Source: a virus (taxonomy: Duplodnaviria > Caudoviricetes). Taken from it: a DNA stretch of 61,979 nt. The notes below the pieces were generated by a model. It did no database searches. It saw only the letters and a list, made by a program, of their open reading frames with translations, and had not been told where the DNA came from. Of the stretch, positions 808-22,319 are shown piece after piece; the first letter of the stretch is position 1; each line of letters begins with the position of its first letter. A program made the position numbers and the translations under genes. The DNA lies in IMG/VR virus record IMGVR_UViG_3300021062_000015, positions 1-61,979 of that record; one strand, given 5' to 3'.

Positions 808-1878
808 TCACCCCAACGCCTCAATATCCTCATCGGCAGGTTCCAAATGTCCGTAGTTATTTTGCACAACCTCCACCTTGTCTCCCATCCATTGGGCGAC
901 CTTGTAGATGGACTTTCCAGCGGACACCAGGATCGAGGCGAAGCTTCGTCTCATCGTATGGGGAGTCACCCAGCCGAACCCTTGGGCTTTCATATAATCC
1001 ATAAACGGCCGTCGGAAATCATAGCGATAACGCCACCTTCGGTGCTTCAGGTCGGCATAAAGCGCAAAATCCAGCGGATCCAAGCCTTTCAGATAGTCCT
1101 TCAGAAAGCGTCGAAAAGAGCCCGTCAGAGGGATCGCTCTTTCCTCCCTGTCTTTAATCTTAAACTCCCGTTCCCCCTCACGAATGCGGTGCTTATCGGC
1201 TTTCCTCACATGCAGGATACCTTCCTCCAGATCGAACCAATCGCGCCTGGCTTCCACAATCTCTTCGCGCCGAAGCCCAGCGTCGAAGCCGCAGAATAGA
1301 ATAAAGCGCATCTCATCATTGGGAGCGTTCTCGATCAACTTCTTCTTATCCTTGCGTCTCACCCAAGGTTTTTTCGAGATACGGTTCGTTTTGGAAAGTT
1401 TTACCTTAGCTACAGGGTTTTCGATTCTCACTCGTTTGACTTCCACGGCCCAGCGGAAAAAAGAGCGTAGCGTCATCAAATACCCTTGGATCGTGTCTTC
1501 TGTGAGGAACTTAGGATCATCCTCAGAATACTTTTTCACCTTCTTCCGGAGGTAAGCGTAGTAAGCGGAAATCTGATCTCTCGAGACATTAGCTGTCGTT
1601 GATCGAGAGGGCAGCCAGGTGCAGAAAGCCAGGAGCGTCTTTTCCTTAGCGTTGCGAGAGTTGGGGGAGTAGCGGTTCTCGCGCACTTGGTAGGCCAGGA
1701 ACTCCTGCACATCATCCTTAATCGTCCGTTCCGACTGAACCAGGGGGTTAATCCTCACCTCCATCAACCGCTTCACGGCGACCGAAGCATCCCTAGTCTG
1801 CAAATTCACCCAAACTCGTTTCCCATCCTCCATTTTAGAAAAGTAGTACCCATTGCGGCGGAGGTAGAGATTCTTCAT
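808..1878 (-). CDS. int: Tyrosine integrase
   Basis: Catalytic motifs GLRREE (R), HTMRRSF (HxxR), NNYGH (Y); N-terminal arm-binding-like segment; adjacent to attP. Confidence 0.95.
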   Translation of the reverse strand: MKNLYLRRNGYYFSKMEDGKRVWVNLQTRDASVAVKRLMEVRINPLVQSERTIKDDVQEFLAYQVRENRYSPNSRNAKEKTLLAFCTWLPSRSTTANVSRDQISAYYAYLRKKVKKYSEDDPKFLTEDTIQGYLMTLRSFFRWAVEVKRVRIENPVAKVKLSKTNRISKKPWVRRKDKKKLIENAPNDEMRFILFCGFDAGLRREEIVEARRDWFDLEEGILHVRKADKHRIREGEREFKIKDREERAIPLTGSFRRFLKDYLKGLDPLDFALYADLKHRRWRYRYDFRRPFMDYMKAQGFGWVTPHTMRRSFASILVSAGKSIYKVAQWMGDKVEVVQNNYGHLEPADEDIEALG

Positions 1879-2100: not shown

Positions 2101-5100
2101 TTACCACAAGCCAATTGCTGTGGCACTATCCTGATACGTCTTGTCCAGTTCTCGCAACTTCGGAAGCAGGCTCGGCACCCTTCGACTGATCCATTCCTCA
2201 AAGTCTCCTTGGGAGATTTCCTTTGCCATTCCTCCCACCTTGATAGGTTGGCGCCCTTTCACGCTGGATCGTAGCTGTCGGATTGCCTTTTGCTCGTCAC
2301 CAGAAGCTTCAATGAATTCAGCTTTGATGTTCATCGCTTCGTCTACGTCCCCAATCAATAAGGCTTCCTGCATGCGATCATAGTAGGGCGAATTTGGCGT
2401 TCGGGGATACTTCCCACCAACTGGAGGTAGATCCTCTCCCAATTCCTTCGCCCATCGATTGCCGGCACGTCGGATTTCAGCCACATCCTTTTTAGCCGCA
2501 TGGATCTTAGCCGCCTTCCATTCCCCAACCAATTGCTCGGAATAGGGCCCAGCGTTCTCTTTAAGGAGAGATGTCACGTAGTTGTAGTTCGGATACTCTC
2601 CCAGAACAAAGTCATTCAGATCCCTCATTGTCAGGCGTTCTTGCTGCCACCCACGCATGATCAAGTTGTTCCAGATATTGACGAAAGGCCCGATGCTTGG
2701 GGGATCAAGAGGACTCTTCGCTCTCCCTCGAGAGACTACACTCTCCATATTCGAAGCCCAGTCGCCGATGATTCCGAACCCTCCCGCATAGACAGCATCG
2801 TGAAATAGGCGTTGCAGTATCAGTGAGACTCCTCGAAGTTCGTTCTCGTTATAGGTATTCGAGATTTCTTCAAAAGAGGCATCCAGCCGGTTCTTCCCAA
2901 AAAGCCTTTCTCTCAGCCAGTAAAGGCTGAAGCCTGTTCCGGCCGTAAAGGCCAGCCACAGGAGCAATGGGCGATAGTCTCTGACCTTTTTGCCATCGAC
3001 TTCATACCCGACGATAGCAGGCTTTAGGATGTCCACTTCAACCCTTCGAAGCATCTGGATCCCGAACTTCTGGAACTGAAACAAAAACTTCGCTGCAGGG
3101 TTTTCCATCCACAGCGGGACCTGTCGCATGTCATAACCAAATTGAGTCACATTCGCAGCGGCCCGCATCAACTTCTTCCCCTCATTCCCCGAGAGCCCTT
3201 GTTTTTTAAGCTTCTCCAAGTCGATGCCATATTTCTTCAGCTTGGCTTGAAAGATTAACGATTCTTGGCTCTTGGGATTCGCCTCCACCTTCTTCATTCC
3301 CCACCTTGCCCAATTGAGTCCTGCCGCCGCCGCCGTCGATCGCGTGAACTTTTCCACCATGGAGAACCCACCGAGCTTAAGCGATACAGAAGCAATCTTT
3401 TGCTGTAATTCCGTGAAATCACTCATCTCCGCCATGCCAGCAAGCAAATCGGATCGGAGCACACCAGCCTCTTCAGCATCACGGATTTGCTTGCCGTATT
3501 GATGCAGCGAGGCCAATCCAGGCAAGGCGTTCGACAACCCGAACTCTGGAATAGTGTTTACGAAAATCGTTGAGGCATTTCGCATCGATGTCCAAATATT
3601 CCCCAGCTTCGACGCTGTCGTATAGGTTCGGAGCCATGCCATCGTATCGTAGAACCATCCTAACTTTCGCTTCTCGTAGATCGTGTCTCGGATATGAGCC
3701 ACATAAAGTTGAGTATTTCTGCTCAGATTCCCCTCAATCGCCTTCTGGAAAGCGTCCTTGTCATTCCCGATGGCCTGCCCAAAAGCTTTGATCTGAGAGA
3801 TACGTTTTGCCCAGGAAGCGATGAAATAGGGGACAACCTCCTCAAATCCTCTCTCATAGAACCAGTCTGGGAGCTTACCCAATCGGGCCATTTCCAAGTT
3901 CGCAAAGAACTTGTTCTCAACTTCAAGAGTGAGATTTTGCTGGATGAAGAGCTTTAATTTCTCAGCATCTTCAATCCCTGTCTCCTCTCGAAGGATCTCA
4001 ATGGCTTCCAGGTAAAGCTTCGGATTTGAATCTGGATCTTCCAAAGCCTCGCGTACATCTCTTCGTAAGATTCTCGGCCAATAAGCATCTCCAAAGTCTC
4101 CAATTGGGCGCCATCCACCTTTCGCTCTCGGATCGATCACATGGACGTTGAGTTGTTTATTTACCTTCCCCGTCCACACAAACATCTTCTTCACCGCGTC
4201 GACAAACTTCTTTCCGCCATCACTCATTTTGGCGTATAAGGCATCGGCTTCAGCTTGGATCTCTGGAGTCCTACCGCTTTCGCGGATCTTCATGTACTCC
4301 TCAAACTCTTTGGAAGCCACCTTCAGATCTGCTTTCTTGAGACTTCGAACGATGTCATTAAATGGCTTCGAGAGTCGCCCAACGAGATCGGCATTCAGAT
4401 CATAGTACTCATCAATCTTATCAGCCAGAGACGAAAGCCTTCCGCCTGCTTTCCGCAAAGTATCCGTCGTGGATTTGTAAATAAGCCCGCCATTCCGCAA
4501 TCGCTGCCACGCGCTGGGGATCATCTCTCCCCGAAGCTTCTTTCTTAATTCTTCAGCCGCCAGAGTCGCTTCTTTGCCGAGAAAGGCTCCGGCTTTCGCT
4601 TGTTTTTCCACTGCAGGAGTGGACTCCGTTTCCCTCGTGAAAAGTGTCTGTCCTTCTCCAAGCACACTCTCCTTCATGGCGGGAGTGATGTCGATCGAGT
4701 GAGCCTTAAACGTCCCCACCTCTTCCTCCTCACCATTCATAACATCTTCTTCTTGGACTGCTGCAATTTCCAGGCCTCCAACCTTCGCCCCCCACTTCTT
4801 CCCATACTTCGCCATGAACTGAGGAAGGATTTGATCATAAAATCCCTTCATGCCAACGCCCCCGATTTTTAATCCTTCGCCTTCGAAAACCTCAGTTCCA
4901 CCAGCGGGAATATTCTTAGATTTCTCAGCCAGATCTTTTCCGACATACTCACTTAGTTTTTCAATAGGAACTTCCTGGGCTACCTGGGTTTGTTCATTTG
5001 CATAAGCACGATTAGGGAGTAACGCTTTTACGTTGTATAATTCCTTGTCATCATTAATGACTTTCTGGATTAGCAACTTATCAACTTGCTTACTCAAATC

Positions 5101-8100
5101 ATACCTTGCCGCCTGCTGTTCTCCCGTAGTCCAGGCAACTTTGTCGTAGCTGGGAACGTATTTGATTGACTGGCTTTTACCACCATTTAAAATAGCGTCA
5201 TGCTTATTCAAATACTCTGCCAGCAATGCGGAGCTAGGTTCAGAACCTTTATGTGTCAAATCGACAAGAACGCTGGGAGATTTTGTTCTGTTAGATGTAG
5301 ACAGATTTCCCCCATCACCAGAGAGAAGATCGCCCGCTCTAAGAGGGGAGGTAAGCCACACAACTTCTCTCGGTTTAATATCCGATGTCTTCAATGTGGG
5401 AAGGAGTTCCTTATTTGTCCCTGCCACAAGGGACGCCGTAAGTGCTGTTCTAAGGCTTGTTCCAACCTTTTTAAGCGCATTCCTAATCCCAAGCGATATC
5501 GTCGTTCTACTATCGGCGGGGAGCGACTGGATGACCACGTTCGGATTGCTTACCAACTTCTTGGTAGAGATCGAGTTCGAGGCAAGAGCGTTCATCACAT
5601 TAACGGGCAAATTCATGACAACAGCATCTCGAACCTGCTCGTAATTCATGAGCGGAAGCATAGAGATCTCCACCGGAGACAGGACGCCGCCGGACGGATC
5701 TTCACTCCCAAAGAAATTCTGCACCATTTCCCGAACGCTCTCTGGCTTGGTGATGTTATTCCAATCGCTACTACCTGACTCCGCAGCCCAACGCAGCATT
5801 CGCTTCATCACGAGCTCATGCCAGGTTTTCTTGAATGGAGCGTCGGAAACCCGTCCTTCCTCTTTGAGAGCATATTTTAAATCTCGCAGTTCAATCAATT
5901 TGTCGGCCATCGAAGAATGTTCATCAGGCAACCCGTTCTTGCTCGGACTCGCTTCAATGGCAGCCTTTAACCATTTAGGCGCATCCTGCGTCTCTTTTTC
6001 TAAGAGTTCAATGCGTGACGGATCGACCTTGTATCCCTCCTTCTTCCCTTTCTGATGCCAATCACTCTGCACCTCTTCAACGAAGAGCACTTTCTTTCCA
6101 TCGGAGTCCGTCCGCTCATTGAATCGCACATGAGCAAGAACATTTGGCTCATCGAAGTGTGAAGATTGGAAATTCTCAGTTGTCGAAAAATGTCCACGCT
6201 TTGCCTGAATATAGGCGCGTGATGCAGCTCCGTGGTTTTCCCAATCTTCCCAAGCTTCCTCTTTACTGAGATTGTAATTCAGTTTGGCCCATTCAGGGAA
6301 ACTATCGAAATCCTCATGAGCGCGGACGGGCAACGTAAACAACAACTCTCGATAGTTCTGTCCTCCTGGAAGTTGGTATTGAGAGAATTTTGTTTCCCCA
6401 GCAACGCTGCCTATGAATGAAACATCACGTTCAGTTAAGCCCAATCCAACCCTCAAAGCTTTAAGACGAGAATCCGCTTCATGATGGCCGATTTGACCAC
6501 CACGGTCTCTCAAATTAAGAATCTTTTCCTCTTCTGCTTTATACTTTTCGATTGCAGATTTCTTTTCTGGAGAGAAAGTCGTGCCCTTCACCACCTCCTC
6601 CACCTTCACCTCGTTCTGCTGCAGAAAATCCAATACCTCTTGCTTTGTTACCTTCTCTTTCCCCTGCAGAAAATCTTGGAGTCCTACCCATTTGATCTCC
6701 TCAGTCTTCACTCCATTCTGAGGGTTCATCACGATTCCCATGATCTGGCCCGCTGAAGCTGCATTCGGCATCTTCTTCTCAATCACTCTTTGAAGTTGAG
6801 AGAAAAATGGAGGAGCGATTGCAGGTTCTGTTTCCCGTGTCCAAAACATCCCGTTCTCAGGAGACTCCAAAAACTTCTTCAATTCTCCTTCAGGATTGGA
6901 AAGGATCACATCAATGGGAACTGTATGCCCATCATAGGTCTTTCTAAAATTTCCTCCATGCGCGTCGACGGCCAAGACGTTGTCTTTAGGTCGATAAAAC
7001 TTATTGAGATCAACTTGCTGAAAACCGAACTTCTTAAGGAAATCGGAGATCTCCGATTTTGAAGGATCCGTCCCCAGAATCAAAGGTTGAGAAATGACGA
7101 TATGGACATCGCCATTCGAATCTTCGATTAGCCCCTCAAACCCTACATCTTGGTTAAAAACTTTATTAAAGAGATTCCAGCGGGCAATATATTCAAGAGG
7201 TGTCGCATCCTCTAAGACAATCTCTCCATTTTTCAGGAAAGGAGTTGCTCCATACATGGAGCCTTGGGTGACTTTAAAAACTAAGCCCGTTTTTTGGTCG
7301 AGGTAGACGTCATGCTCACGACCACTGTCAACAAGAGGGTTACGGCTGATCAGCTCGTCGTAACGGAACTCTTCTTGTAACCGGACCAGGTCTTGTAAGG
7401 CATTTCGCTCAATTTCCGCTGCCTCACCCCGGTCCCCGGCCTTGAGATATACTTGGCGTACTCCTCGAACTCCTCGGAGGTGAACTTCGGCGGATTTAAG
7501 GAGATCCTTTTTAGATCTTCGAGTGTCGTCGTTACGGCGGCTTTCATTGGACTCTCCTAAGTTACCATCGGTTGTGTCTCTTGTAAAGAGCTCGCCCTGA
7601 CTTCCAGGGTCTTTAAATAGGTCTCGGGTATTGTCCCCACCTTTCTTTCCACTCTCTTTGGATTTTTCAAATTCCTGCTGAGCCTGAAGCTTTCGCAAGG
7701 ATTCCATGGATGGCTTGGGAACTTCGAAAAGAGGTTTTCCTTCCGTCTCACGCGTCTGGAGAGCAGGCACTCCTTCTAGGGCCGATTCAATATCCTGAAC
7801 CGTTCGCTTTAGGATCTCTCCCATCACGCCTTGGTCAACTTGGCGAGCGATCTGTCGGAGTCTGAATAGAGATTCTCTTACCCAATCCACGATCTTATTG
7901 AGGATAGCCAGCCAGCGAGTATCTGTGGTGAGATTATCCGCTCGGAGTTGGACGAATTGGCGGGCAAGTTCTGCCGCCATCACGATCACATCTCTTGGCT
8001 TTTTATCCAGATGCTCGATTAGAGCTTCATATGTCGTAATGCTCGAGGGTTGAGACAAGTCTTTATTCCCTTGGTAGAGATTCCAGGAATCGACCATTGC

Positions 8101-11100
8101 TTGCTCGATTGACTCGGCCTTAGTGATTTCTCCACGGCTTCGGTATTCAGACGCAAGATCCCGAATCTCACCAACGAGATCACCTAAATCTTTTCGAACG
8201 TAAGCGTCAAACGATCCTTTGCCAGACGTCTTCCATCGATCTCGTAAAATCGAAAGATGAACAGCATGAATCAGTTCTTCTTGGAATTGATCGCGGATGA
8301 GGGTGGTGCCAGCCTCTTCATTTCCCTTCGCTTCGGCATCCCGCAAGACTCGGGCAGGATCGTATTTGACGACTATTGTGCCGTCTGCCAGAAAATGCGC
8401 TCTGGGCAATTCCCCGTCGGAGGTTTCAAGTACTTCGGATCCGAAGGCTCGAAGGGCATCCCGTAAGCTAGATGTACTGCGTGATCGCTGTAAAGCGAGG
8501 CGTAATCCACGTCCCCCTCCGTCGGACGAGCGAAGCTGAAGATCCTGCCTTCCTTCTCGATTCTCTTGAGAAGTTCCTGTTTCCTGATCTCCTCGATGCT
8601 GTCCTCCAGTCGATTCATCGGTGGAAACATAAGCCTTCTTCACCTCTTCGTCAATACGGCGTCTTTCGCCTATTCCTTTTTTCTTCTTCGGCTTGGCAGG
8701 AAGAGCCTTTTCCAAAGCATCAGCCATGGAGACTAACTTCGGCTTGGACTCTTCTTCCTTTCGGAGCTTATCGAGCTTGGCCAAGTACTCCGCTTGCCCC
8801 ACCGTTCCCTTCGGAATCTTCACCCCATTTTGCTTCAGGAGAGCGATTCCCGTATCCGTCAGCACGGGTTCGCCATTCGGTCCCGTTTCCAAGAAACCCG
8901 CTTTAGCCAGTCGTGCCTTCGATTCCTTCGTCGGCTGTCCACCTTTGAGCACAGCTTCGAGATTGATGAAATCAGACTTGGTTTGAGCTTCTTCGGTTTG
9001 TTGGGCCAGTTGCTCTTCAGCGGAAACTTGTTTCGGCACCAACATCTCCAAAGCTTCTGAGATCTTCTGGCGCAGAGGTTCGGGCCAGGTGATCTTCACC
9101 ATCTGGTCAGGATTGATGGCGTTAGGCACTTCGATGGATCCTCCCGCAGCCAATTGTCGAATCGCTTGCAGATCCACTTCGCTTCCCGTCCCGAGATTTT
9201 CCCAGGCTTGGGCGAGTTCTTGTGTTGCCGCTGCAACCTCGGGCGTGATCTCAAAATTGTCAGAGGCTTGTCCAGGGAGATGGGAAACAGCTTCCGAAGG
9301 CTCAGGCAACGCTCCAGGGATCGTTACTCCAGTCCCTTGCACTCCGTTGATATCAACATCATGGCCCTGGAGTTCTTCAACCGGAGCTTGCGGTTGGGTG
9401 CTCGGAAGTTCAGGAGGCAACTGAACAGAGGAAACCGGAGTCGTCAGAGCTTCCCACGCAGTTTTCCAATCGCCTTTCTGCAGAGCCAACATGGCTCGCA
9501 TCTCCAGAGTCTTAGATTGCTGTCGGTCCTTGCGATAGTCAGAGTTCTTCCAGTCTTCCTTAAAATCTTCGATAAAATTAGTCAGCCCTTCCTTGATTTG
9601 CTTCGCGCTCTCAGGAGCATTCGCAAGGGCCGAGGCACCTACTGCCGGTCCCACCGCCATCATTTCTTGCACCGCATTGGCCACCCGTTCCCGAGAGGTC
9701 ATGTTCTCAGCCAAGAAATCATACGTCGCTTGAGGCAGTCCTTCTCGCGTCGCACCACTAGCAACATCCATAGCCCCGTGTGCAAGCTTTTGGGAGAGAG
9801 AAGCCCCCTTCGTCGCCTTGATGGTATTGGCCGCATTTTTCACAAGCCCCATGGCTGTTACCGTGGCAATCGGTCCAAAAGGATCAGTTGCGCCACCCAT
9901 CCATCCGGCGCCTGCAGCTTCCTTCACAGAATCAGGAGTACGGTTTAGAAGTTCGGCAAGATCTCCATGGCCAGAAGCTGAGAGAGCCATTAAGAGTTCT
10001 GGAGTTTGGAGGAGGTCAGAGGCGAGTTGCCCCGTCTTTCGCGCTCGATCTTCATCCTCACGTCGGAGTCGATATTGGTAGTTTGGTGTCGAAATATTCT
10101 CGATCAACTTCGCAAGAGCTTCCGCATCGCCAGAGCGGATTCTCTTCACCAAAGCCTGATTATCTGGATGTTCGATGGAATGAATGTCCTGTTTGAGATC
10201 CAGCCCCTTCCACTTCGTTCCATATCGTTCACGGTCAATCGTCGAGCTATAAATCTGTTCTTCTCGGGTCCGTCCAGCAAGCTGCAGTCGAGCGGCCGCT
10301 TTCTTCATCTTCTCTTCGTCCCCATCAGCCATCGCTTCCGCATACTCCGTCGCTGCGGATTCAATCACTTCTTTGGCCTTACTGCGGTTAAGAAGGAGAT
10401 TTTCCTTCACCGTCTGCCCGCTATTTCGCAAAGCTTCTTGCAATCGCAATGCCGCCAGTTCTTCAGTCGAAAGATCTTCAACCTTCTTTTTCCCAGCCAC
10501 ATCAAAAACATCTTTGGAAAGTCCGAGAGCTTGTAAGCCGAGAGAAGAGATTCCCCCAAGCATGGAAGCACCAAGGCCGGCAACCGATCCTGCAGTTTGT
10601 TCGGCAACCCCCTTCTTCTCTTTGGGATCCACGAACATATCTTTCGCAGCTGTTCCCACGTCCTTAGCCACATTTTTCCACCATTCCACATCCGTCGGGC
10701 GTAGCTTCACCGTCTTCACCGCTTCACGGATCTTTACGGGATCCACTTGGGTTGGCTGTTCTTCAAATCGAGATTTAAACTGCGCGATTGCTTGGGGGGT
10801 AAATTCAAAGCCATTCGGCAACTGCACCCCGAGCTTCTTCATCGCAACCCGCGCTGTTGCTGGGAGGATGGCGCCAGTCTCAACCCCATCGAGAACCTCA
10901 AAAGGCTTTGGAACGAACTCCAAATCTTCCTTCTTCTTGGGCTCAAAGCGGGCCAAGAAATCTTTATCCAATTCAAGATCGGAAGGCACTTCCGGTAAGG
11001 AAGCTTCAGCCTCCAATTCTTCAACCTTCGGCACCACCACCCGATTCGAATTCAAATCATTTTGCGCCACATATTTGCCAGCAGGGCCAGCCACCTTGAC

Positions 11101-11304
11101 ATCAGGAGCATCTTCGAAGTCATCCCAGTTGAATTCACGCTTAGCCACAACTTGGCTATTGGCTATTGGCTGATTGGCGATTTGAGTAGGAGGTTCATAA
11201 TCCGGGAAATCATCCCAGTTAAACGACTTTGCTTTCGGTGCCGATGGAGAGACTACAGATTCAGGCGCGTCCTCAAAATCATCCCAATTGAACGTAGGAG
11301 GCAT
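2101..11304 (-). CDS. Giant polyvalent / internal virion (ejected) protein, 3067 aa
   Basis: Last late gene; FNWDDF repeats; EELIHAVH peptidase-like motif; polyvalent-protein kinase-like domain (~6880-7340); HFDEPNVLAHVR...EEVQSDWHQ domain typical of phage large polyvalent proteins. Confidence 0.85.
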   Translation of the reverse strand: MPPTFNWDDFEDAPESVVSPSAPKAKSFNWDDFPDYEPPTQIANQPIANSQVVAKREFNWDDFEDAPDVKVAGPAGKYVAQNDLNSNRVVVPKVEELEAEASLPEVPSDLELDKDFLARFEPKKKEDLEFVPKPFEVLDGVETGAILPATARVAMKKLGVQLPNGFEFTPQAIAQFKSRFEEQPTQVDPVKIREAVKTVKLRPTDVEWWKNVAKDVGTAAKDMFVDPKEKKGVAEQTAGSVAGLGASMLGGISSLGLQALGLSKDVFDVAGKKKVEDLSTEELAALRLQEALRNSGQTVKENLLLNRSKAKEVIESAATEYAEAMADGDEEKMKKAAARLQLAGRTREEQIYSSTIDRERYGTKWKGLDLKQDIHSIEHPDNQALVKRIRSGDAEALAKLIENISTPNYQYRLRREDEDRARKTGQLASDLLQTPELLMALSASGHGDLAELLNRTPDSVKEAAGAGWMGGATDPFGPIATVTAMGLVKNAANTIKATKGASLSQKLAHGAMDVASGATREGLPQATYDFLAENMTSRERVANAVQEMMAVGPAVGASALANAPESAKQIKEGLTNFIEDFKEDWKNSDYRKDRQQSKTLEMRAMLALQKGDWKTAWEALTTPVSSVQLPPELPSTQPQAPVEELQGHDVDINGVQGTGVTIPGALPEPSEAVSHLPGQASDNFEITPEVAAATQELAQAWENLGTGSEVDLQAIRQLAAGGSIEVPNAINPDQMVKITWPEPLRQKISEALEMLVPKQVSAEEQLAQQTEEAQTKSDFINLEAVLKGGQPTKESKARLAKAGFLETGPNGEPVLTDTGIALLKQNGVKIPKGTVGQAEYLAKLDKLRKEEESKPKLVSMADALEKALPAKPKKKKGIGERRRIDEEVKKAYVSTDESTGGQHRGDQETGTSQENREGRQDLQLRSSDGGGRGLRLALQRSRSTSSLRDALRAFGSEVLETSDGELPRAHFLADGTIVVKYDPARVLRDAEAKGNEEAGTTLIRDQFQEELIHAVHLSILRDRWKTSGKGSFDAYVRKDLGDLVGEIRDLASEYRSRGEITKAESIEQAMVDSWNLYQGNKDLSQPSSITTYEALIEHLDKKPRDVIVMAAELARQFVQLRADNLTTDTRWLAILNKIVDWVRESLFRLRQIARQVDQGVMGEILKRTVQDIESALEGVPALQTRETEGKPLFEVPKPSMESLRKLQAQQEFEKSKESGKKGGDNTRDLFKDPGSQGELFTRDTTDGNLGESNESRRNDDTRRSKKDLLKSAEVHLRGVRGVRQVYLKAGDRGEAAEIERNALQDLVRLQEEFRYDELISRNPLVDSGREHDVYLDQKTGLVFKVTQGSMYGATPFLKNGEIVLEDATPLEYIARWNLFNKVFNQDVGFEGLIEDSNGDVHIVISQPLILGTDPSKSEISDFLKKFGFQQVDLNKFYRPKDNVLAVDAHGGNFRKTYDGHTVPIDVILSNPEGELKKFLESPENGMFWTRETEPAIAPPFFSQLQRVIEKKMPNAASAGQIMGIVMNPQNGVKTEEIKWVGLQDFLQGKEKVTKQEVLDFLQQNEVKVEEVVKGTTFSPEKKSAIEKYKAEEEKILNLRDRGGQIGHHEADSRLKALRVGLGLTERDVSFIGSVAGETKFSQYQLPGGQNYRELLFTLPVRAHEDFDSFPEWAKLNYNLSKEEAWEDWENHGAASRAYIQAKRGHFSTTENFQSSHFDEPNVLAHVRFNERTDSDGKKVLFVEEVQSDWHQKGKKEGYKVDPSRIELLEKETQDAPKWLKAAIEASPSKNGLPDEHSSMADKLIELRDLKYALKEEGRVSDAPFKKTWHELVMKRMLRWAAESGSSDWNNITKPESVREMVQNFFGSEDPSGGVLSPVEISMLPLMNYEQVRDAVVMNLPVNVMNALASNSISTKKLVSNPNVVIQSLPADSRTTISLGIRNALKKVGTSLRTALTASLVAGTNKELLPTLKTSDIKPREVVWLTSPLRAGDLLSGDGGNLSTSNRTKSPSVLVDLTHKGSEPSSALLAEYLNKHDAILNGGKSQSIKYVPSYDKVAWTTGEQQAARYDLSKQVDKLLIQKVINDDKELYNVKALLPNRAYANEQTQVAQEVPIEKLSEYVGKDLAEKSKNIPAGGTEVFEGEGLKIGGVGMKGFYDQILPQFMAKYGKKWGAKVGGLEIAAVQEEDVMNGEEEEVGTFKAHSIDITPAMKESVLGEGQTLFTRETESTPAVEKQAKAGAFLGKEATLAAEELRKKLRGEMIPSAWQRLRNGGLIYKSTTDTLRKAGGRLSSLADKIDEYYDLNADLVGRLSKPFNDIVRSLKKADLKVASKEFEEYMKIRESGRTPEIQAEADALYAKMSDGGKKFVDAVKKMFVWTGKVNKQLNVHVIDPRAKGGWRPIGDFGDAYWPRILRRDVREALEDPDSNPKLYLEAIEILREETGIEDAEKLKLFIQQNLTLEVENKFFANLEMARLGKLPDWFYERGFEEVVPYFIASWAKRISQIKAFGQAIGNDKDAFQKAIEGNLSRNTQLYVAHIRDTIYEKRKLGWFYDTMAWLRTYTTASKLGNIWTSMRNASTIFVNTIPEFGLSNALPGLASLHQYGKQIRDAEEAGVLRSDLLAGMAEMSDFTELQQKIASVSLKLGGFSMVEKFTRSTAAAAGLNWARWGMKKVEANPKSQESLIFQAKLKKYGIDLEKLKKQGLSGNEGKKLMRAAANVTQFGYDMRQVPLWMENPAAKFLFQFQKFGIQMLRRVEVDILKPAIVGYEVDGKKVRDYRPLLLWLAFTAGTGFSLYWLRERLFGKNRLDASFEEISNTYNENELRGVSLILQRLFHDAVYAGGFGIIGDWASNMESVVSRGRAKSPLDPPSIGPFVNIWNNLIMRGWQQERLTMRDLNDFVLGEYPNYNYVTSLLKENAGPYSEQLVGEWKAAKIHAAKKDVAEIRRAGNRWAKELGEDLPPVGGKYPRTPNSPYYDRMQEALLIGDVDEAMNIKAEFIEASGDEQKAIRQLRSSVKGRQPIKVGGMAKEISQGDFEEWISRRVPSLLPKLRELDKTYQDSATAIGLW
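5166..5193 (+). promoter_or_regulatory. sigma70-type promoter for the nested HNH gene (leaderless)
   Basis: TTGACT-16-TAAAAT with the ATG at 5200, 6 nt after the -10. Confidence 0.65.
5200..5778 (+). CDS. HNH homing endonuclease nested antisense inside the giant gene
   Basis: CxxC zinc fingers (CLQCGKEF...CSKAC) followed by the HNH core DHVRIAYQLLGR...VHHINGQIHDNSISNL...H. Confidence 0.85.
   Translation: MLIQILCQQCGARFRTFMCQIDKNAGRFCSVRCRQISPITREKIARSKRGGKPHNFSRFNIRCLQCGKEFLICPCHKGRRKCCSKACSNLFKRIPNPKRYRRSTIGGERLDDHVRIAYQLLGRDRVRGKSVHHINGQIHDNSISNLLVIHERKHRDLHRRQDAAGRIFTPKEILHHFPNALWLGDVIPIATT
7350..7547 (-). CDS. Nested +1-frame small protein (65 aa) at the front of the kinase domain
   Basis: Own promoter; AGGAGAG 4 nt before the ATG; helical protein-like sequence PKFTSEEFEEYAKYISR. 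Confidence 0.6.
   Translation of the reverse strand: MKAAVTTTLEDLKRISLNPPKFTSEEFEEYAKYISRPGTGVRQRKLSEMPYKTWSGYKKSSVTTS
7559..7587 (-). promoter_or_regulatory. Internal sigma70-type promoter
   Basis: TTTACA-17-TAACTT with extended -10 TG. Confidence 0.6.
8373..8618 (-). CDS. Nested +1-frame small protein (81 aa) at the front of the peptidase-like domain
   Basis: ATG 7 nt after a -10 box; MNRLEDSIEEIRKQELLKRIEKEG amphipathic helix. Confidence 0.6.
   Translation of the reverse strand: MNRLEDSIEEIRKQELLKRIEKEGRIFSFARPTEGDVDYASLYSDHAVHLAYGMPFEPSDPKYLKPPTGNCPERIFWQTAQ
8626..8654 (-). promoter_or_regulatory. Internal sigma70-type promoter (leaderless)
   Basis: TTGACG-17-TATGTT. Confidence 0.65.
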
Positions 11305-21645: not shown

Positions 21646-21834
21646 GTTTTTCCTAACAGCATCTTCATCGGCATTTCGGATAGCTTTGGCATTTTTATCG
21701 TCCTCGTTATTTTTCTTTTGCGCTTCGTCTCGTCGCTTCATTTCCGGCGTGTTATTCAGATCCGACCTCTTGGAAGCGAAACCAAACACCGCCCCAATCG
21801 CTCCAAAAAATCCCTTAATGCTCTCCCAAATCAC
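21637..21834 (-). CDS. Small membrane-anchored coiled-coil protein, i-spanin candidate
   Basis: N-terminal hydrophobic helix followed by a charged helix. Confidence 0.5.
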   Translation of the reverse strand: MIWESIKGFFGAIGAVFGFASKRSDLNNTPEMKRRDEAQKKNNEDDKNAKAIRNADEDAVRKNLS

Positions 21835-22319
21835 GGAACCTCCACTTGAGGTTGAACATCATCAAGAATCGAAGTTGCCGCGTTCTCACAACCGCGGGCG
21901 AGAGATTCGAGCACCTGTAGAGCAAGCTTTGGATCACCCTTTACCTTCGCGTAATACCCCTCATAAAAACCGCTCACCACCTTGGCTAGAGAAGCGAATT
22001 GGCTCTTCTTCCCGCCGAAAACAATAATGGTGCTTTGAATCTCTTCCACCGAGGGCACCTTCCCGCCGCTCAGAGACCGGATCCCGTGGGCGATCGCATA
22101 CATATAGTTGGCCACTTCCTGTCGCTCCTTCGGGTCTTCAATTGAAGAGATAGCGATCACACTCACCGCCTGGGCCACAGCCGGAAGAAAGTCCACCGAC
22201 TCCTCCACCACTTGTCGGGGAGTCAGGTTCCCGCACCCAGAAAACACAGAGAACGTCGCAAAGATTCCAAAGGCAACCATCACTCCGCTAAACCAACGAA
22301 CTACAGTTTTAAAATTCAT
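21831..22319 (-). CDS. Lipoprotein
   Basis: Hydrophobic signal then FSGC lipobox. Confidence 0.65.
   Translation of the reverse strand: MNFKTVVRWFSGVMVAFGIFATFSVFSGCGNLTPRQVVEESVDFLPAVAQAVSVIAISSIEDPKERQEVANYMYAIAHGIRSLSGGKVPSVEEIQSTIIVFGGKKSQFASLAKVVSGFYEGYYAKVKGDPKLALQVLESLARGCENAATSILDDVQPQVEVP

Follow-up and report, generated by a model that had tools for sequence, protein, structure and literature searches.

Does the giant gene of this phage carry a second gene, read in another frame, at the front of its protein kinase domain, and what would the hidden product do? The stretch of DNA analysed here (the window, 61,979 nucleotides) contains on its minus strand a gene for a giant polyvalent protein of 3067 amino acids (2101..11304, main frame, taken from the ORF list and its translation). 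This gene stands at the end of the virion gene block and adjoins the integrase gene, with portal, major head, tail and integrase genes recognized nearby by PHROGs. The original prediction placed within it a 65-aa ORF in the +1 frame, opened by an ATG behind AGGAGAG and ending just ahead of the ATP loop of the kinase. All of these elements could be located on the minus strand. The overlapping ORF (P0002) occupies 7350..7547, with 65 codons and a stop, runs from the ATG at 7547 to a TGA at 7352..7350, and overlaps main-frame residues 1253–1318; its stop lies 12 codons ahead of the Glu in the SGREH glycine loop. The explanation that we prefer, with a probability of about 0.6 as a whole, is an overprinted gene of the Kinase-PolyVal module, with its own ATG and a product that would bind and modulate the kinase.

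The main frame encodes a recognizable but reduced kinase. The module (6829..7584, minus strand, main-frame residues 1241–1492) lies between two TR[ED]T linker motifs (residues 1241 and 1489), and its limits coincide in the alignment with the start and end of stand-alone kinases of ~240 aa. Kinase-PolyVal (PF18762) is the only Pfam family above its cut-off in the 3067-aa protein. The match (6901..7398, minus strand, residues 1303–1468) scores 50.8 bits against a cut-off of 27, with an E value of 2.5e-13, and the main frame is thus a member of that family. The AF2 model of the module has a pLDDT of 83.6. Protein kinases are its best fold matches in the PDB, although weak ones (E 1.5e-3, TM 0.3), and matches to full kinase folds cover only part of their targets (TM about 0.25–0.3). 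The C-terminal kinase subdomain is absent, as the module stops at the TR[ED]T linker ~25 residues past the metal-binding Asp. The invariant alignment columns (A1), E90, H91, K104, D207, N212 and D225, are all present in the window's module, and from general kinase topology we take them to supply the glycine-loop Glu, the beta-3 Lys, the catalytic Asp/Asn and the metal-binding Asp. This assignment also draws on the main text of Iyer et al. (Iyer, Burroughs, Anand, de Souza and Aravind 2017, PMC5512222), which describes Kinase-PolyVal as a stripped-down Ser/Thr/Tyr-type kinase that lacks the C-terminal subdomain and occurs both as a stand-alone protein and within polyvalent proteins of (pro)phages from the Verrucomicrobia and Bacteroidetes lineages.

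Taken in the window sequence alone, the +1 ORF is no more than chance. The +1 frame stayed open over codon offsets -72 to -26 in 18% of synonymous shuffles of the module, and the giant gene holds 11 +1-frame ORFs of at least 50 aa, five of them of at least 65 aa. For the domain behind a second hidden ORF (8373–8630), no relatives were found in 5 and then 401 Verrucomicrobiota genomes with the query used. The closest relative shares just 39% identity with the kinase module, the relatives ranging over ~30–39%, so that the selection tests below bear on the family. Searches of phages and plasmids by blastn and tblastn gave a single chance-level match (E 0.7), no close relative was found among viral contigs with either the protein or an alignment (A2) as the query, and a search for homologs with the giant protein returned only itself, on two contigs, with none at 193–615 aa. 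When both frame readings were compared by blastp with 150 homologous proteins, nothing significant appeared in register; sufficient sensitivity was reached with profiles only.

That the ORF exceeds chance emerges from the comparison with distant relatives. All comparative loci, at least 120, came from a single scan with a back-translated kinase-core pattern and are nearly all labelled as Verrucomicrobiota assemblies, Akkermansia and Prosthecobacter among them. Relatives of the kinase module were encoded in 118 of the 120 listed loci (tblastn, E <= 1e-3), and 108 listed loci were put in register on the glycine-loop Glu. The original prediction had proposed looking for the ORF upstream of homologous kinase domains, and there, in 93 of the 95 listed loci, the +1 frame is open at the same place, where synonymous shuffling of the main frame leads one to expect 61.2. 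The same 95 loci contain 0.021 +1 stops per locus, against 0.44 expected. The listed loci are nearly stop-free in this frame from codon offset -72 to -26; in the relatives, +1 stops concentrate around -79 and between -22 and -9, and those of the window are at -81 and -12. These are not repeated counts of one sequence, as the listed loci have a median pairwise core identity of 34% and form 19 clusters at 50% core identity. With one representative per cluster, the frame is open in all 19 (12.0 expected), with 0 stops against 9.2. Stop avoidance is confined to the +1 frame, the +2 frame having about 3 stops per locus in the overlap.

The substitution pattern is also that of two coding frames. In 30 disjoint pairs, mean main-frame third-position divergence is 0.228 in the overlap versus 0.503 in the kinase core, and it is lower in the overlap in 29 of them. 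Within the overlap, 21 of the 30 pairs diverge more at the first phase of the main frame, which is the third position of the +1 frame, than at the third phase; within the core, 0 of 30 do so. Conversely, when the +1 codons are shuffled synonymously, the main frame is expected to remain open through the whole +1 ORF in 28.9 of 100 listed loci; it does so in 89. The stretch is therefore dual-coding, since the main frame is kept open as well. An R/G/D-rich main frame had been put down to constraint on the other frame only, an account that this result does not support in that form. On these comparisons, we conclude that the +1 ORF is kept by selection in about a hundred distant kinase relatives and that it is a property of the Kinase-PolyVal module and not just of this phage.

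A +1 ORF of 40–110 aa with a start codon is present in 99 of the 108 mapped listed loci, with a modal length of 63 aa. An ATG serves as the start in 72 of these 99 relatives, at offsets of about -80 to -66, while about a quarter of the listed relatives (group B) have no ATG and only GTG or TTG candidates. The ORF and its ATG are intact in five loci where the kinase lies at least 344 codons into a longer ORF. In stand-alone relatives, 4–40 nt separate the +1 ATG from the start codon of the kinase, and it is the first ATG to follow a -10-like box. Position, openness, start codon and peptide are thus conserved in distant relatives, which bears out the proposal that the ORF travels with the kinase module under selection. 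We regard it as very probably a real, translated gene, judging from sequence conservation. No RNA run was listed among the sequencing runs containing the stretch; the two that contain it are DNA runs, possibly the ones from which the present DNA came. The neighbourhoods of five sampled stand-alone loci revealed no common partner gene and no common toxin–antitoxin or defence context.

The products of the +1 frame form a family of their own. The relatives' peptides align around L[RK]xxRLxQPxx[TS]xEE[FA]xxQ[MVI]E, and a profile built from the 99 non-window peptides ranks the window's ORF first among 805 window frames (E 1.3e-4; next 0.4), a modest match confined to about 29 N-terminal residues. 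When a profile was made from the main-frame segments of the relatives, nothing in the giant protein matched it at E <= 10. The conserved part carrying the motif of the peptide alignment (A3) corresponds to residues 9–35 of the window's peptide (7443..7523, minus strand; TLEDLKRISLNPPKFTSEEFEEYAKYI). AF2 with this alignment gave a pLDDT of 72 and two helices, at residues 9–17 and 24–35, with 86–87 in the residue blocks within 11–30; the C-terminal half is low-complexity and predicted to be disordered. In the public data, 47 small proteins of 49–105 aa that match the peptide profile have already been called as hypothetical proteins. Pfam returned no family for 37 peptides tested beyond single chance-level matches, and no recognized HTH or other DNA-binding domain, and PHROG and the ESM Atlas gave no family match and no usable match, respectively. 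Within the overlap, the best-conserved +1 part is the first half and the best-conserved main-frame part is the last third. About 190 bases would be read twice: in the main frame as a helical N-terminal extension or linker of the kinase, in keeping with the helices predicted there, and in the +1 frame as a small protein with a conserved, helix-turn-helix-shaped N-terminal hairpin (~35 aa) and a poorly conserved, disordered tail.

How the small protein would be started is less clear-cut. The promoter-like TTTACA-17-TAACTT with an extended TG, said to be encoded by the LFTRDTTDGNL linker, is present as described (7559..7587, minus strand; putative in function). Its -35-like TTTACA lies at 7587..7582 and is encoded by L-F-T, the TG lies at 7567..7566, and the -10-like TAACTT at 7564..7559 is encoded by G-N-L and ends 11 nt upstream of the +1 ATG. 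The motif scores 8/12 (-35, 5/6; -10, 3/6, keeping T1, A2 and T6 in addition to the extended TG), which is below the threshold of the consensus scan, so that it was not listed there. The window, both strands included, has two sites of its class, and shuffles give 1.69 +/- 1.35; promoter-like sites in general are not enriched in the giant gene (4 found, 6.8 expected). In 27 of the 72 listed relatives with an ATG start, a TAnnnT box begins 19 to 14 nt upstream of the +1 ATG, most of these being related group A loci and hence not independent; the modal position, -17, is that of the window's TAACTT. One relative (L098) has TTTACA-17-TGtTATCAT. Of the idea that the ORF has its own promoter, the recurring spacing of the -10-like box stands, while the motif itself falls short of the scan threshold, and an internal promoter is plausible but unproven.

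A gap of 4 nt separates the Shine-Dalgarno-like AGGAGAG (7552..7558, minus strand) from the +1 ATG. This heptamer also stands in front of the ATG of the giant gene itself and of the gene at 21831..22319, and the window holds 27 copies against 14.1 +/- 3.4 expected, only two of them on the sense strand of the giant gene. In the relatives, SD-like motifs are not enriched before the +1 ATG (8 of 73, background 0.106). The promoter-like motif and AGGAGAG cannot serve one transcript, because a start ~7 nt past the -10 would fall at ~7552, the last base of AGGAGAG. The small protein would be made from its own ATG by either of two routes: internal initiation on the giant late mRNA via AGGAGAG, or a short-leader transcript from the internal promoter-like motif, as may be the case in the stand-alone relatives whose -10-like box is equally far from the ATG.

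The modelling of the peptide with the kinase that the original prediction had suggested favours binding. The complex model scores 0.77 and the best of three controls 0.00; of 80 solved complexes, 58 attained this mark, as did 2 of 110 mismatched pairs, counts that are rough because the alignments were our own. At least 59% of contacts agree between the runs, with a partner pLDDT of at least 54, and the predicted contacts use peptide residues 4–35 and kinase module residues 83–101, 143–146, 167–170, 181–185 and 216–223. In the model, the peptide would sit on the kinase core against the strands flanking the glycine loop and the stretch after the conserved Gln, and would also contact the strand before the metal-binding Asp, that is, the mouth of the nucleotide cleft. 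We therefore lean, somewhat beyond even odds, towards the view that the peptide binds the kinase. The bound peptide would then modulate the kinase, and the direction of the effect is our conjecture: an inhibitor or antidote is a tentative suggestion, beside an activating or structural subunit.

A more far-reaching proposal, which we regard as speculative, is that an effector and its antidote are written twice in the same DNA as one cassette, with the peptide plugging the cleft. The peptide might be made alone from the internal promoter in the lysogen, while the late operon is silent, where it would guard the host from leaky kinase and neutralize the kinase injected by a superinfecting sibling phage, giving protection against superinfection. 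As the bases are shared, recombination could never part the antidote from the effector, and such a cassette would account for the unbroken pair seen equally in stand-alone genes, two-domain proteins and giant polyvalent proteins.

Several other explanations have to be weighed against the overprinted gene. Nothing in the window alone goes beyond chance, the promoter lies below the scan threshold and the match to the peptide profile is modest, all of which would suit a relic: the +1 gene would be real in the family but a silent passenger here since the capture of the module, no peptide would be made, and the ORF with its promoter-like and SD-like motifs would survive through shortness of time or tolerance of the main frame. 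We consider this unlikely. The capture is old, because the module is only about 30–39% identical to any relative; the ATG, length, stop position and family motif have been kept while the main frame drifted beyond recognition by a profile; and the ORF is retained in five other embedded copies. Another possibility would be a translational device acting in cis, in which a functionless peptide exerts uORF-like control over initiation or folding of the kinase. It draws on the stand-alone relatives, in which the two starts must compete, since they are 4–40 nt apart and the +1 ATG is the first to follow the -10-like box. However, ~35 residues are conserved, with conservative replacements, across clusters of less than 40% kinase identity, the substitutions by codon phase have the pattern of a coding frame, the complex model passes its controls, and retention 3.7 kb inside a giant ORF is left unexplained by a uORF role. 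We therefore hold such a device to be rather improbable.

The conserved first half of the +1 peptide and the best-conserved last third of the main-frame overlap could also be pieces of one chain, the peptide being joined to the kinase core by a -1 frameshift or a fusion to give a second isoform with an alternative N-terminus. One protein (P0078, 237 aa) indeed reads through ~50 residues of +1-type peptide and then in frame into the kinase core (profile E 5.9e-13), but it is a singleton from one contig. The +1 stop is conserved just before the core, the main frame is open along the whole overlap, and a ribosome in the giant gene would need two shifts. X_XXY_YYZ heptamers occur in 28 of 100 listed loci, mostly as A-runs at the very start of group B ORFs, and none lies in the window; no slippery heptamer is conserved, for which reason a programmed frameshift was rejected, and we judge the joined isoform very unlikely. 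A compensated frameshift or assembly error, with the +1 frame as the true reading, was likewise rejected, as the two-frame arrangement recurs in about 100 independent assemblies. The constraint might instead act on the nucleotides, as an RNA structure or a recombination site for cassette exchange, with the open +1 frame as a by-product. The main text of Iyer et al. (2017, PMC5512222) proposes that ORFs standing alone in the vicinity of polyvalent loci serve as cassettes for recombination into the main gene, and such recombination could constrain the module borders. Yet the constraint is specific to one frame, with ~3 stops per locus in the +2 frame, the variability is ordered by +1 codon position, the ATG and stop are at fixed places, and the peptide can be aligned between clusters with dissimilar DNA, which leaves this explanation highly improbable. 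Hardly any credence remains for a chance ORF with chance motifs and no gene in any genome. The commonness of +1 ORFs of such size in the giant gene and the 4 promoter-like sites against 6.8 expected agree with it, but all comparative tests contradict it, and the loci are not near-identical copies (median core identity 34%).

The proposed arrangement can be compared with known systems. In phage lambda, the Rz1 gene is wholly embedded in the +1 frame of the larger Rz gene, and both products are made and bind each other. The hidden gene described here is likewise an embedded +1 gene, with binding predicted between the two products. Unlike these spanins, which are lysis proteins with Rz1 as a lipoprotein, the host frame here is a protein-kinase module whose N-terminal extension is covered by the embedded gene, and the two travel as one piece between stand-alone genes and giant polyvalent proteins. 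By analogy with kinase toxin–antitoxin pairs such as HipA/HipB, a small protein encoded 5′ of a protein kinase could neutralize it by direct binding. HipB, however, is encoded by a separate, non-overlapping gene and has a recognized HTH DNA-binding domain, whereas the candidate partner here is overprinted on the kinase gene and has no HTH family match. Inside srfAB, a giant multidomain gene of Bacillus subtilis, lies comS, which is short, out of frame and equipped with initiation signals of its own, and in this it resembles our hidden short ORF with its putative start signals. The pathway on which ComS acts is unrelated, and comS has no tie to any one domain of its host gene, whereas the present ORF accompanies a single domain family in every setting of that domain. 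In the toxin–immunity cassettes of polymorphic toxin systems (CdiA/CdiI, Rhs), an effector domain and its cognate small binding protein form an exchangeable cassette. The kinase similarly travels with a candidate small binding protein, but the immunity gene of those systems is separate and follows the effector, and the candidate partner here lies ahead of the catalytic core and has its DNA in common with it.

Only a few phage examples are known in which an embedded gene encodes a binding partner for the product of its host frame. In the present case, the overprinted gene seems to be a constant feature of an entire family of protein-kinase domains and, along with the kinase, to be distributed over prophages, bacterial chromosomes and giant virion proteins. 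As the kinase frame is the longer of the two, gene callers nearly always overlook the hidden gene. Should the peptide regulate or neutralize the kinase, the annotated protein alone would not suffice to understand kinase activity, experiments that express the kinase gene would unknowingly co-express its partner, and the pair would be a clean natural case of interacting proteins locked together by shared DNA. It would also offer a testable answer to how phages safely carry potentially toxic injected effectors.

No description of the hidden gene was found in full-text searches for papers on Kinase-PolyVal/PF18762, polyvalent proteins, or overlapping genes combined with kinase or antitoxin. In the main text of PMC5512222, the words 'overlapping' and 'frameshift' do not occur, nor is a second frame or a partner peptide mentioned. 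A survey of the Legionella kinome also came up under the name Kinase-PolyVal.

The giant gene (2101..11304, minus strand; 3067 aa) lies between an integrase gene (808-1878, minus strand; PHROG 1, E 2.5e-39), which directly adjoins its 3' end, and a minus-strand block of virion genes (tail, major head, portal), in what is a complete virus record of 61,979 bases. With an integrase gene at its side the phage is probably temperate, which bears on the idea, part of the original prediction, that the hidden gene protects lysogens. Kinase-PolyVal, at aa 1303-1468, is the sole Pfam family above the cut-off in the giant ORF (E 2.5e-13). This match assigns the main frame to Kinase-PolyVal and makes the ORF a polyvalent protein as defined by Iyer et al. 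2017 (PMC5512222). The peptide motif TR[ED]T occurs at aa 1184, 1241, 1489 and 2223, and copies of it bracket the kinase module (aa 1241-1492). The fuller form [QFW]-T-R-[ED]-T-[ET], found on the minus strand at about 7741-7764, 7570-7593, 6826-6849 and 4624-4647, coincides with apparent module borders, and its copies may be linkers or processing sites. At the N-terminus, the motif FNWDDF(E/P)D is repeated three times (aa 6, 29 and 59; about 11100-11290, minus strand).

Ahead of the kinase, the original prediction described promoter-like hexamers, a Shine-Dalgarno (SD)-like heptamer and an ATG opening a 65-aa ORF in the +1 frame, and all of these read as stated on the minus strand: a -35-like TTTACA (7587-7582), 17 nt, an extended TG (7567-7566) with a -10-like TAACTT (7564-7559), AGGAGAG (7558-7552), and, 4 nt further, the ATG at 7547, whose 65 codons end with TGA at 7352-7350. 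The bases of the -35-like TTTACA double as the codons for L-F-T in one copy of the TR[ED]T motif. Relative to the giant gene the ORF is read in frame +1; it spans main aa 1253-1318, with its stop 12 codons ahead of the SGREH-loop Glu. Judged from the window by itself, the ORF does not stand out. Within the giant gene there are 11 +1-frame ORFs of at least 50 aa, five of which reach at least 65 aa, and the +1 frame remained open in 18% of trials when the window's own kinase module was shuffled synonymously. By codon statistics, which are only suggestive, it is the second most coding-like of the 11 when read in its own frame, and the main frame scores low there. The highest coding-likeness belongs to an 85-aa +1-frame ORF (ATG at 8630; window 8373-8654, minus strand), which precedes the next upstream domain of the giant protein; for that domain, no relatives were found in 5 plus 401 Verrucomicrobiota genomes.

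No close relative was present in the collections searched. In a full HMMER scan of 1.84 billion representatives, the kinase was recognised in 813 proteins (E <= 0.001), of which the top one shares only 39% identity. For a locus search, six conserved kinase-core blocks (ATP, EY, R, N, F and D of ATPxEYxxRxxxxNxxFxxD) drawn from A1, the alignment of kinase module relatives, were back-translated into one pattern and run over genome contigs. This yielded at least 120 loci, nearly all labelled Verrucomicrobiota; among the matches listed, 118 of 120 were true kinase relatives by tblastn, and 108 could be registered on the glycine-loop Glu (module residue 90), from which offsets are counted in codons. 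The pattern lies well downstream of the +1 ORF and therefore does not select for it. The Verrucomicrobiota labels, which among the matches listed amount to no census, hint at the host range of the kinase module; a few of the listed loci are labelled Klebsiella, Bifidobacterium or Acidiferrales.

Across the registered loci among the matches listed, the +1 frame is nearly free of stops from offset -72 to -26, and stops concentrate at about -79 and at -22 to -9; those of the window lie at -81 and -12. Among the usable loci listed, an ORF of at least 50 aa covers the overlap in the +1 frame in 101/103, as against 11/103 in the +2 frame. When the main-frame protein was held and its synonymous codons were shuffled, 61.2 of 95 listed loci were expected to be open in the +1 frame, and 93 were, with 0.021 stops per locus against 0.44 expected. 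The same holds for one representative of each of 19 clusters (50% core identity; matches listed), where all 19 are open against 12.0 expected and no stop occurs against 9.2 expected.

The codon phases, compared in a main-frame codon alignment of 79 listed loci for pairs at 70-90% core identity, agree with this picture. Divergence at phases 1, 2 and 3 of the kinase core is about 0.16, 0.12 and 0.49; the overlap shows 0.19, 0.05 and 0.09 between offsets -60 and -45, and the core pattern is back by -15. Of 30 disjoint pairs from the matches listed, 29 diverge less at third positions in the overlap than they do in the core (0.228 vs 0.503), and phase 1, the +1 frame's third position, diverges more than phase 3 in the overlap of 21/30 pairs and in the core of 0/30. 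This pattern is the sequence signature of a coding +1 frame. Overlap phase 1 (0.27) is itself below the core third-position rate in all 30 pairs, and the main frame is open in 89 of 100 listed loci against 28.9 expected when the +1 peptide is held and its synonymous codons are shuffled. Phase divergence and openness against the shuffles thus indicate that both frames are maintained, so that the overlap is dual-coding, and selection, as read from these alignments, bears on both readings alike. The hidden gene postulated by the original prediction is, on this comparative evidence, real.

The encoded peptides form an alignable family. Among the matches listed, a +1 ORF that has a start codon and measures 40-110 aa is present in 99 of the 108 registered loci; the start is ATG in 72 of the 99, and the modal length is 63 aa. 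The shared motif L[RK]xxRLxQPxx[TS]xEE[FA]xxQ[MVI]E, in the window TLEDLKRISLNPPKFTSEEFEEYAKYI, is followed by a Ser/Gly/Lys-rich tail. A profile of the 99 non-window peptides ranks the window's ORF top of 805 stop-to-stop window frames (E 1.3e-4; runner-up 0.4). A profile of the relatives' main-frame segments matched many database kinases and nothing in the giant protein. Since only the peptide profile matches, the family likeness of the overlap in this phage is carried by the +1 frame. The peptide has no matching family in Pfam, PHROG or Atlas, and its profile matches 47 small proteins called 'hypothetical' in public data. AF2 with an alignment predicts helices at residues 9-17 and 24-35 (pLDDT 86-87 in blocks 11-30), followed by a tail without order, and the main-frame reading of the overlap is predicted as two longer helices ahead of the kinase strands.

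Binding of the peptide to the kinase, as the original prediction would have it, is supported by a model in which the window's kinase module (alignment A1) was folded with the peptide (A3, the alignment of +1 peptides): the score was 0.77, the best of three controls 0.00. The score mark was reached by 58/80 solved complexes and 2/110 mismatched pairs, counts that hold only roughly here because our own alignments were used. Contact agreement between runs was at least 59% and partner pLDDT at least 54. Peptide residues 4-35 are predicted to contact module residues 83-101, 143-146, 167-170, 181-185 and 216-223, which by kinase topology correspond to the strands flanking the glycine loop, the segment that follows the conserved Gln and the strand leading up to the metal-binding Asp; jointly these line the entrance, or mouth, of the nucleotide cleft. 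Such a placement would be compatible with an inhibitor, and also with an activating or structural subunit.

In lambda Rz/Rz1, an embedded +1 gene encodes a product that binds the host-frame product, and the kinase-peptide arrangement works alike, partner binding here being predicted. Kinase toxin-antitoxin (TA) or toxin-immunity pairs are alike in possible role. Unlike in TA systems, the peptide has no DNA-binding family match; toxicity and rescue are the defining TA features. A partner role of the peptide for the kinase is a model-supported reading, and an antidote or immunity role is a hypothesis. No published description of a second reading frame in Kinase-PolyVal kinases was found in the parts of the literature open to our search.

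An internal promoter for the +1 ORF, the other element of the original prediction, is plausible from the sequence. A promoter scan of the giant gene listed 4 sites against 6.8 expected; TTTACA-17-TAACTT is absent from them because its -10 matches only 3/6, and window sites combining a -35 of at least 5/6 with TGnTAnnnT number two, against 1.69 in shuffles. Among the four listed sites is TTGACG-17-TATGTT, upstream of the 85-aa ORF. A TAnnnT box starts 19 to 14 nt upstream of the +1 ATG in 27/72 ATG-start relatives among the matches listed, with a sharp mode at -17, where the TAACTT of the window also starts. Relatives with the box are mostly related loci (group A) with TATAAT, TATATT or TATACT preceded by CTCGCA; L098, a locus outside this group, has TTTACA-17-TGtTATCAT. 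In stand-alone genes, this box position would yield a transcript with almost no leader, on which the ATG of the small ORF comes first; the window retains this geometry within the giant gene.

Transcription starting about 7 nt past the -10 would begin at the last base of AGGAGAG, so a single transcript cannot make use of both the promoter and the SD-like heptamer. Upstream of the relatives' +1 ATG, SD-like motifs show no enrichment (8/73 vs background 0.106, matches listed). In the window phage, AGGAGA-type SDs precede 13/35 genes (background 0.165), and the giant gene's own start is preceded by AGGAGAG, as is that of the +1 ORF. The whole window has 27 copies of AGGAGAG against 14.1 +/- 3.4 expected, a count reached by no shuffle; several precede gene starts, so the heptamer looks like the phage's preferred ribosome-binding site.

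The overlap occurs in several arrangements. Among the matches listed, five loci have the kinase at least 344 codons inside a longer ORF, with the +1 ORF and its ATG intact; in several others a main-frame stop falls within the overlap segment, and the small ORF starts outside the kinase ORF. Five stand-alone or two-domain copies, compared by their neighbours, have no partner gene in common and show neither a defence nor a TA context; in these five neighbourhoods the overprinted ORF is the kinase's sole constant companion. A database protein, P0078 (237 aa), carries a +1-type peptide of about 50 aa in frame with the kinase core; it may reflect either a genuine fusion or an indel introduced in assembly, and we give it little weight because this one sequence comes from a single contig (10,007 bases). 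Across the overlap loci listed, slippery heptamers show no conservation. In about a quarter of the listed relatives (group B, e.g. L008, L010, L042, L064, L066 and L122), the +1 ORF terminates at offset -22 and lacks an ATG, its only start candidates being GTG or TTG; an A7-A8 run (AAAAAAG or AAAAAAA) lies near its start, and ribosomes may enter this frame either by slippage or at a GTG. In group C (L020, L044, L085, L046, L052, L073 and L076), the main-frame start (GTG or ATG) lies 4-7 nt from the +1 ATG, as in GTGCATGG and ATGCCCCATGG, so that both frames would share a single initiation region.
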